Source of the DNA: an uncultured Thiomicrospira sp.
Lineage (GTDB): Bacteria > Pseudomonadota > Gammaproteobacteria > CAKMZV01
Direction: 5' to 3'
Length of the DNA stretch: 64,000 nucleotides
Assembly (NCBI GenBank): GCA_965195345.1
Contig: OZ239628.1
Coordinates: 224,001 to 288,000 of the forward strand
Of the stretch, positions 12,258 to 13,977 are shown in pieces. The notes below the pieces were generated by a model. The model searched no databases and was not told the DNA's origin. It saw only the letters and a program-made list of their open reading frames with translations. Positions within the stretch are counted from its first letter, which is position 1. Each line of letters opens with the position of its first letter. The position numbers and the translations under genes are program-made.

Positions 12258-13977
12258 ATTTACCAACAGCTCATTGAAAATCCTAATAAAGGGGTGTGTA
12301 GGCGTGTGTAGTTACTGACTGAACTCGATACAAGGTAATAGGAATCCATATGTTGGGCGAGGGGATAGAAGAAATTCTTCAGGGATTTGCCGTAGCGTTA
12401 AACTTAGGGGCTACGAAGCGTGACTTTGACAAAACAATCGCCATACACCCGACCATAGGAGAAGAGCTTCACCATTAAGCCTCTACTGTAGATTACCAAC
12501 AGCGCATTGAAAAACCCTAATAAAGGGGTGTGTAGGCGTGTGTGTAGCTACTGACTTAACTCGATACAAGGTAATAGGAATCCATATGTTGGGTGAGGGG
12601 ATAAGAAATTCTTCAGGGATTTGCCGTGGCGTTAAACTTGGGGGCTACGAAGCGTGACTTTGACAAAACAATCGCCATACATCCGACCATAGGAGAAGAA
12701 CTTCACCATTAAGCCTCTGCTGTAGATTTACCAACAGCTCATTGAAAAACCCTAATAAAGGGGTGCGTAGGCGTGTGTAGCGACTGACTGAACGCGATAC
12801 AAGGTCATAGGAATCCATATGTTGGGCGAGGGGATAGAAGAAATTCTTCAGGGATTCGCCGTAGCGTTAAACTTAGGGGCGACGAAGCGTGACTTTGATA
12901 AAACAATCGCCATACATCCGACCATAGGAGAAGAGCTTCACCATTAAGCCTCTGCTGTAGATTACCAACAACTTATTGAAAAACCCTAATAAAGTGGTGT
13001 TTAGGCGTGTGTAGTTACTGACTTAACTCGATACAAGGTAATAGGAATCCACATGTTGGGCGAGGGGATAGAAGAAATTCTTCAGGGATTCGCCGTAGCG
13101 TTAAACTTAGGGGCGACGAAGCGTGACTTTGATAAAACAATCGCCATACACCCGACCATAGGAGAAGAGCTTATCACCATTAAGCCTCTAACTGTAGATT
13201 ACCAACAGCTCATTGAAAAGCCCTAATAAAGGGGTGTTTAGGCGTGTGTGTAGCTACTGACTGAACTCGATACAAGGTAATAGGAATCCATATGTTGGGT
13301 GAGGGGATAGAAGAAATTCTTCAGGGATTCGCCGTAGCGTTAAACTTAGGGGCGACGAAGCGTGACTTTGATAAAACAATCGCCATACATCCGACCATAG
13401 GAGAAGAGCTTCACCATTAAGCCTCTGCTGTAGATTTACCAACAGCTCATTGAAAAGCCCTAATAAAGGGGTGTTTAGGCGTGTGTGTAGCTACTGACTG
13501 AACTCGATACAAGGTAATAGGAATCCATATGTTGGGTGAGGGGATAGAAGAAATTCTTCAGGGATTTGCCGTAGCGTTAAACTTAGGGCTACGAAGCGTG
13601 ACTTTGACAAAACAATCGCCATACACCCGACCATAAGAGAAGAGCTTCACCATTAAGCCTCTGCTGTAGATTTACCAACAGCTCATTGAAAAACCCTAAT
13701 AAAGGGGTGCGTAGGCGTGTGTAGTTACTGACTGAACTCGATACAAGGTAATAGGAATCCATATGTTGGGCGAGGGGATAGAAGAAATTCTTCAGGGATT
13801 CGCCGTAGCGTTAAACTTAGGGGCTACGAAGCGTGACTTTGACAAAACAATCGCCATACACCCGACCATAGGAGAAGAGCTTCACCATTAAGCCTCTGCT
13901 GTAGATTTACCAAAAGCGCATTGAAAAACACAAATAAGGTATGTGTAGGCGTGTGTAGCTACTGACTGAACTCGATA
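12094..13977. repeat. Tandem array, 8 copies of a 233-239 bp unit (gor 3' end + spacer + OmpA-like gene 3' end)
   Basis: Units begin ACAAGGT(A/C)ATAGGAATCC at 12094, 12330, 12566, 12799, 13033, 13272, 13509, 13743; copy 1 carries the real gor end and copy 8 the real stop of the convergent gene. Confidence 0.97.

Follow-up and report, generated by a model that had tools for sequence, protein, structure and literature searches.

The gene gor, which encodes glutathione-disulfide reductase, is followed in an uncultured Thiomicrospira sp. by seven silent copies of its own 3' end, and these differ from the working end almost only by synonymous changes. We consider it probable (roughly 0.6 by our own estimate) that this array is a long-period tandem repeat, or minisatellite, that exchanges sequence with working gor ends and is not a dedicated system. 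The array lies at 12094-13977 of the window, by which we mean the whole stretch of 64,000 nucleotides that was analysed, corresponding to positions 224001-288000 of a source genome represented by a single contig of 1,920,693 bp with 39.8% G+C. The observations laid out below concern the identity of the junctions between units, the near-confinement of substitutions to silent positions of the gor frame, the presence of frame-changing indels in every silent unit, and the mosaic distribution of variants among the units.

Organization of the gor-end array

Tandem Repeats Finder (TRF) reports one array, with a period of 234, 8.0 copies, 94% matches and 1% indels. It was cut by alignment into eight head-to-tail units of 233-239 bp each, which span 12095-13977 and start at 12095, 12331, 12567, 12800, 13034, 13273, 13510 and 13744. 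Each unit opens with the final 53 codons of gor and their stop, continues with a spacer of about 50 bp and closes with the end of an ompA-like gene that is convergent with gor, namely the final six codons and stop of that gene as the reverse complement. The working gor gene (10899..12257, plus strand) is an open reading frame (ORF) of 452 amino acids with matches to the Pfam families Pyr_redox_2 (1.1e-73) and Pyr_redox_dim (5.5e-32); its homologues carry the source name glutathione-disulfide reductase, and unit 1 takes in the final 53 codons of the gene together with their stop. At the other end, the ompA-like gene (13959..15680, minus strand) is an ORF of 573 amino acids with a match to Pfam OmpA (1e-8) at residues 477-548, and the final six codons of this gene, with their stop, fall within unit 8. 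Unit 1 (12095..12330), described like all the units on the plus strand, is therefore made up of the working gor end, the spacer and a silent copy of the ompA-like gene end, and unit 8 (13744..13977) holds a silent gor end and the working ompA-like end.

All seven internal junctions are identical, with CGATA joined to CAAGG, and the founding breakpoints have at most 1 nt in common. Because the junctions are identical, the units would trace back to one founding duplication that was later amplified, and the ends would not have been added one by one; the sequence points to a single illegitimate duplication as the founding event. A higher-order repeat, which the additional TRF periods of 469 and 944 might suggest, was also considered and finds no support in the pairwise distances between units. 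The spacer of unit 8 (about 13905-13945) has five private sites and one indel relative to the other seven spacers, and it is without the small CCCT...AGGG hairpin found in the other seven units. This spacer seems to escape the homogenization seen in units 1-7.

Substitutions in the silent units follow the gor reading frame

A preliminary description of this DNA, made from the sequence alone, had listed 13 substitution sites among the copies, and our alignment reproduced all 13 in the copies named. Twelve of them are synonymous changes at third codon positions: GTA>GTC (unit 4), CAT>CAC (unit 5), GGC>GGT (units 3, 6 and 7), TTC>TTT (units 2, 3 and 7), GTA>GTG (unit 3), TTA>TTG (unit 3), GCT>GCG (units 4, 5 and 6), GAC>GAT (units 4, 5 and 6), CAC>CAT (units 3, 4 and 6), GAG>GAA (unit 3), ATT>ATC (unit 5, with C also found at this site in the six copies that bear a deletion described below) and CTG>CTA (units 2 and 5). 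The remaining site is a non-synonymous first-position change (GGA>AGA, unit 7). The toggle of the opposite-strand stop between TAG and TAA is likewise present, with T in units 1, 4 and 7 and C in the remaining units.

The same description had argued that what distinguishes the copies was filtered by selection acting on the Gor protein and had proposed binomial and dN/dS-type checks; the argument is borne out by both. The binomial probability of at least 12 synonymous sites out of 13 is 2.9e-7 without transition bias (expected share 0.235) and 1.7e-5 if transitions only are allowed (expected share 0.333), and the variable sites give a per-site non-synonymous/synonymous ratio of 0.03. If only the 46 codons that precede the shared deletion are counted, 10 of the 11 substitution sites are synonymous (P between 2.9e-6 and 8.5e-5). 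Variation reaches 12/53 third positions, compared with 1/106 first and second positions (Fisher P 7e-6) and with 13/52 spacer positions (P 0.82), and twelve silent changes to one non-silent change is a proportion that neutral change within silent DNA is not able to give. The filter follows the gor frame also beyond the 42-codon ORFs that several silent units contain, as the 23 first and second codon positions that lie outside these ORFs are all invariant (P 0.0013-0.017 at spacer rates). Among private sites, 6/7 fall at third positions (binomial 15/2187 = 0.007), and this third-position bias of private variants indicates a source outside the present array. Antisense coding as the cause of the bias was ruled out, since only the gor frame is open and the three antisense frames hold 1, 2 and 4 stops.

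Indels and loss of the Gor tail

Indels, which the preliminary description had omitted, change the frame of all seven silent units relative to unit 1. The most widespread is a 2-bp deletion shared by units 2, 3, 4, 6, 7 and 8 (6/7 silent units), which swaps the tail ITIKPLL for two histidines and a stop, so that the translated product ends EELHH. The tail that is lost, EE(L/V)(V/I)T(L/M/I)(K/R), is kept in the Gor of the window and in 8/8 relatives counted, whose tails read EE(L/V)VT(L/M)(K/R); the Gor of a genus relative ends EEVVTLKPIL. This count covers the 8 of 13 relatives' loci that were read in the right frame, with L003, L004, L007, L009 and L017 left out. Because the lost tail is conserved in relatives, the deletion is derived, and the units that bear it descend from, or were homogenized to, one defective copy. 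The frame-changing indels in all silent units imply in turn that these units are not stored working alleles.

The silent units can be told apart by their remaining features. Unit 2 (12331..12566), in which the shared deletion falls between 12468 and 12469, has a 42-codon ORF at 12350-12478, and deleted units 4 (12800..13033), 6 (13273..13509) and 8 have ORFs of the same length at 12819-12947, 13292-13420 and 13763-13891, respectively. Unit 3 (12567..12799) is the most divergent: besides the shared deletion it has lost 2 bp of its own after 12602 as well as the ompA-side stop, and three of its synonymous changes are private. Unit 7 (13510..13743) has, in addition to the shared deletion and the only non-synonymous change, a private 1-bp deletion after 13585. 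Unit 5 (13034..13272) is the sole silent unit without the 2-bp deletion; its tail reads ATC ACC ATT AAG, and it has a 57-codon ORF on the plus strand (13053-13226), the frame of which is extended by a 1-bp insertion near 13190. An undeleted tail among silent units occurs only here and in an extra unit version found in one sequencing run (X1, below). Unit 5 may be a displaced former working end that was pushed downstream by out-of-register recombination.

Mosaic structure of the units

The distribution of variants among the units is that of mosaics. The four-gamete test was applied to 16 informative columns; 66 of their 120 pairs carry all four combinations, which calls for a minimum (Rm) of 6 recombination events within 234 bp. 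Over columns 1-138, no difference separates unit 1 from unit 8 and a single one separates it from unit 2, and units 3 and 5 differ at 9/138 positions. The near-identity of units 1, 8 and 2 points to recent exchange with the working end. For the greater likeness within a genome than between strains that concerted evolution would bring, a single site, CTCGATA, could be compared on the ompA side: G is present in all eight units, A is found at the working ompA-like end (13974) of a variant contig from the sequencing runs, and ORF P0135 of a second assembly implies, as judged from its peptide, A in a silent unit.

Recovery of the array in sequencing runs and in a second assembly

Sequencing data were available as four public runs (X1-X4) from one study and two samples, with no RNA run listed; contigs were built from these runs with 31-letter words, and the results given here come from 32 of 95 records. 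The junction between units 3 and 4 is bridged without difference by X2 record 12 and X4 record 27 (12719-12836) and, with one other letter, by X3 record 20. The junction between units 4 and 5 is bridged, also with one other letter, by X2 record 14 (12934-13082). The bridging contigs at these two junctions, which join unit 4 to both its neighbours, extend at least 31 letters on either side; among the records listed, the 1/2, 5/6 and 6/7 junctions are crossed by 12-27 letters. Within units, X4 record 26 (12564-12670) matches unit 3 without difference, as do X1 record 4, X2 record 15 and X3 record 21 for unit 5, and these exactly matching contigs include the private indels of both units. Gaps in cover at 12556-12891 in X1 and at 13648-13731 in all four runs are uninformative. 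The stretch with the 1-bp deletion of unit 7 (13564-13647) has next to no contig cover, and that deletion is unconfirmed. Contig depth of unit-specific pieces is about that of the flanks, depth here not being equal to copy number.

Variant sequence is present in the same runs. An extra unit version in X1 (13160-13272), absent from the reference, has the undeleted tail and a synonymous CTG>TTG change. Variant contigs of X3 differ from the working ompA-like gene at nine positions within 13974-14177 (about 200 bp), seven of which are synonymous third-position changes. Diverged working alleles thus co-occur in the same samples. Three contigs of X3 also run on into sequence unlike the window, at 12116, 13886 and 13942, and the last of these loose ends resembles a diverged spacer beside the ompA-like gene end of a second strain.

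In the second assembly, one contig of 173,003 bp encodes MnmC, Gor and KdsB proteins identical to those of the window at 532/541, 450/452 (with the same Gor tail) and 235/238 residues, respectively; the presence of these three proteins indicates that the contig spans the locus. Silent-unit ORFs that end EELHH are found on the same contig in at least three different forms: P0122 is the identical 42-residue ORF, P0127 differs by one V>M change and P0135 has 58 residues. Four further ORFs of 42-60 residues from other organisms (P0138, P0143, P0146 and P0231), on contigs of 95-255 kb, correspond to the C-terminal end of Gor only and could derive from split genes or be additional free gene ends. 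Proteins of 440 residues that fell into the cluster of the 42-residue ORF proved unrelated on inspection, their placement being a quirk of clustering.

Genomic context and relatives

No integrase, transposase or recombinase was found by Pfam among the 22 ORFs in window 1-30000, 20 of which have other Pfam families, the neighbours including MsrB, MnmC, KdsB, ProS and RecG. A comparison of 11900-14200 with Rfam gave no match at E values of up to 1. No terminator-like site was found around the array, and one promoter-like site lies outside it, at 14272-14299. Exact look-up of six minus-strand ORFs of the array, the ompA-like ORF and MsrB returned none in the protein collection searched.

The preliminary description had suggested looking elsewhere in the genome for other 3'-end arrays; none was found in the 1.92 Mb. 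Genome-wide TRF gave 67 rows that reduce to 48 loci, 44 of which are in-frame repeats inside genes, and the remaining four are the gor-end array, an array resembling clustered regularly interspaced short palindromic repeats (CRISPR) and two whole-gene tandem duplications. The CRISPR-like array (contig 1573103-1575752, outside the window) has a 37-nt repeat, spacers of about 30 nt, a period of 67, about 40 copies and no open frame. One of the duplications (contig 1486493-1487996, also outside the window) comprises two tandem ORFs of about 213 amino acids, and at the other (contig 1757319-1759449, outside the window) there are four ORFs of 221-222 amino acids, three of them within the repeat; identity in these two duplications is 90-91%. 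Inside the window, a short tandem repeat with a period of 39, 2.2-2.5 copies and 78-81% matches lies at 55488-55599, and a Type I restriction-modification locus at 22190-29656 encodes HsdM, HsdS and HsdR, with an AAA_15/AAA_21 ATPase gene between hsdS and hsdR.

TRF found no gor-end array at the relatives' gor loci L002-L017, the only repeat being an unrelated one of 40 bp in L009. The closest genus members among 41 genomes have a Gor that is 53% identical. A search of genome contigs for close relatives gave none, the two loci at 29-30% identity being both unrelated, and metagenome contigs gave three loci at 43-50% identity.

Discussion

For the array to have reached its present state, an illegitimate tandem duplication would have come first, the copied stretch of about 235 bp starting within gor codon 399 and reaching the sixth-last codon of the ompA-like gene. 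Because the two genes converge, both would have stayed whole through this event, gor ending in the first unit and the ompA-like gene in the last. Homology between units would then have driven expansion and contraction via unequal crossover or slippage, and short-patch gene conversion would have moved variants about, both from unit to unit and between units and the working gor end. In this scheme, the 12 synonymous differences would have arisen in gor ends that were in use and that selection kept free of amino-acid changes; these ends may have belonged to the lineage itself over time or to strains living alongside it at a divergence of a few percent. Recombination out of register, together with conversion, would have copied the synonymous states into the silent units, and two or three imports or copies from such working alleles, followed by shuffling, would cover all 12 sites. 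The decay proper to the silent units would then amount to four indel events and one non-synonymous change. The founding duplication and the mosaic pattern are read directly from the sequence; the changes in unit number, the origin and transfer of the synonymous states and the share of decay are what we infer from them.

Several points weigh against this explanation. Six silent units retain one and the same frameshift, which frequent copying from the working end should erase. Its persistence would require that the exchanged patches are short and that the majority state spreads among the silent units, and the private GAG>GAA change of unit 3 lies 3 nt from the shared deletion. Of the 21 nt of the unit that belong to the ompA-like gene, four vary: two of these sites change a residue, one destroys the stop and one is silent (the TAG/TAA toggle); no selection filter is visible there, the number of sites being small. 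The former presence of the 12 synonymous states in working alleles is presumed, as is the direction of exchange. The runs used to examine the array may be the source of the assembly itself and so do not amount to independent support, and the figure of eight units is that of the assembly.

Among the alternatives, we have considered that the silent units are exchangeable cassettes, copied into the working end often enough for amino-acid changes to be purged from them by second-order selection. The synonymous bias, the mosaicism and the identity of units 1 and 8 over 138 columns all agree with this, as does the second strain, whose silent-unit ORFs are unchanged or one residue off while the flanking proteins differ at 0.4-1.7% of residues. 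Such purging, however, should also have removed the frame-changing indels of all seven silent units and the tail deletion of six, both known working ends retain the full tail, no associated genes are apparent among the 22 ORFs of window 1-30000, and Gor is a housekeeping enzyme for which swaps of synonymous patches would bring no evident gain. We therefore regard as unlikely the idea that patches pass between silent units and the working gor end at so high a rate that purifying selection reaches the silent units second-hand. It is equally doubtful that the purge is effective by virtue of a very large population, with the array as a reserve of usable 3' patches, and we would put no higher the suggestion that, in a marine population with much recombination, the array both samples the sequence of working alleles and gives it back.

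A different source of constraint would be a selected peptide of 42 residues (MLGEG...EELHH), made by each silent unit from its own ATG, which is preceded by an AGGA at a distance of 6 nt. Five of the seven silent units retain an ORF of 42 or 57 codons, and the identical 42-residue ORF recurs in the second assembly. The constraint on the gor frame nevertheless extends upstream of the ATG and downstream of the ORF stop (0/23 positions vary), the ORF is broken in units 3 and 7, and the ATG and AGGA are themselves the conserved Met and Gly codons of gor, HMLGEG being found in the genus relative as well. The peptide would moreover be a fragment of the dimerization domain (Pyr_redox_dim, residues 340-445), which is unlikely to fold alone, and taken together these points make a selected peptide quite improbable. 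The array might also be an artefact, in which the assembler strung together alleles of different strains; these could come from one locus, the case that the preliminary description had itself named as a refutation, or from a shorter array. The samples do contain more than one strain, as seen in the variant contigs of X3 and X1, and none of the contigs listed spans the whole array. Concatenation is nonetheless a poor fit, since contigs link units 3, 4 and 5, with unit-specific variants joined across the 3/4 and 4/5 junctions and the private indels of units 3 and 5 present in contigs, since the second assembly has at least three distinct silent-unit ORFs on one 173,003-bp contig, and since alleles of a working locus would not have in common the frameshift that six units share. 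We consider an assembly artefact very improbable indeed.

A minisatellite in exchange with working gor ends also bears on what the preliminary description had made of the copies. It had taken them for an archive of functional alleles, an idea that is difficult to sustain when 7/7 silent units are frame-changed and six lose a conserved tail. It had further proposed an undescribed allele-recording or 3'-end replacement behaviour, for which the identical junctions, the mosaic units (Rm 6) and the lack of a recombinase among the 22 ORFs offer no support. As to the origins it had put forward, import from other strains stays part of our explanation, and the laying down of ends one by one is at odds with the single junction.

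Comparison with known systems places the array closest to bacterial minisatellites, or variable-number tandem repeats (VNTRs), where head-to-tail units of 100-300 bp lie between genes and are kept alike, as ascribed to slippage and recombination. Long-period intergenic tandem repeats of this kind include VNTR-141 and VNTR-105 of Wolbachia (PMC3287509), and tandem repeats of Ehrlichia ruminantium expand and contract (PMC10710844). The gor-end array shares with minisatellites the single junction, the long period (TRF period 234) and the lack of a recombinase or mobile gene among the 22 ORFs. Copy number of VNTRs varies between strains, and in the present case unit variants are seen in X1 and in the second assembly (P0127 and P0135). 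The array is unlike the Wolbachia VNTRs, which are 98-99% identical and non-coding, in that it is mostly coding and its units are 6% different, nearly all of this being synonymous. Duplicated gene fragments in E. ruminantium were reportedly described by Collins in 2005 and Frutos in 2006.

Gene conversion between a working gene and a silent partial copy has a precedent in ntrX of E. ruminantium, where an unexpressed partial duplicate adjoins the working gene and the two undergo two-way segmental gene conversion; an indel was left untransferred in some strains, and the authors suggest that conversion may slow decay (PMC9937504). The mosaic distribution of variants expected of concerted evolution by gene conversion is found in the gor array (66/120 pairs, Rm 6). 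The ntrX duplicate is however single, inverted and derived from the 5' part of the gene, whereas the gor array comprises seven direct tandem copies of the 3' end. The orphan 3'-end arrays of cdiA and rhs, which have been viewed as a "fossil record" of replacements or as a redeployable "silent repository" (PMC4927057), are similar in layout only, with spare or former 3' ends trailing the working gene. Their modules are different toxins with immunity genes, have separate junctions and are often accompanied by transposase or integrase genes; the junctions of the gor array are identical, its differences silent and its surroundings (22 ORFs) without mobile genes, and the separate entry of modules is thus not seen in it. 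Promoterless partial copies near an expressed gene, with segmental gene conversion, are also known from pilE/pilS of Neisseria and vlsE of Borrelia (PMC11499132). The pilS and vls cassettes are in frame and bring amino-acid changes to a surface antigen, whereas in the gor array 12/13 changes are silent, the enzyme is cytoplasmic and every silent copy is frame-changed, so that neither trait of those cassettes is present. Word searches of the open-access literature found no description of tandem gene-end arrays with synonymous-only differences, which is not proof that none is in print.

The gor-end array shows that a coding-like, silent-only divergence of unexpressed gene fragments need not imply expression or a new system, as such divergence can be the footprint of recombination with working alleles. 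Should second-order selection prove true after all, the array would be a case of selection reaching silent DNA through gene conversion alone. In uncultured bacteria, arrays of this kind could act as natural markers for the frequency and the fineness of short-patch recombination.

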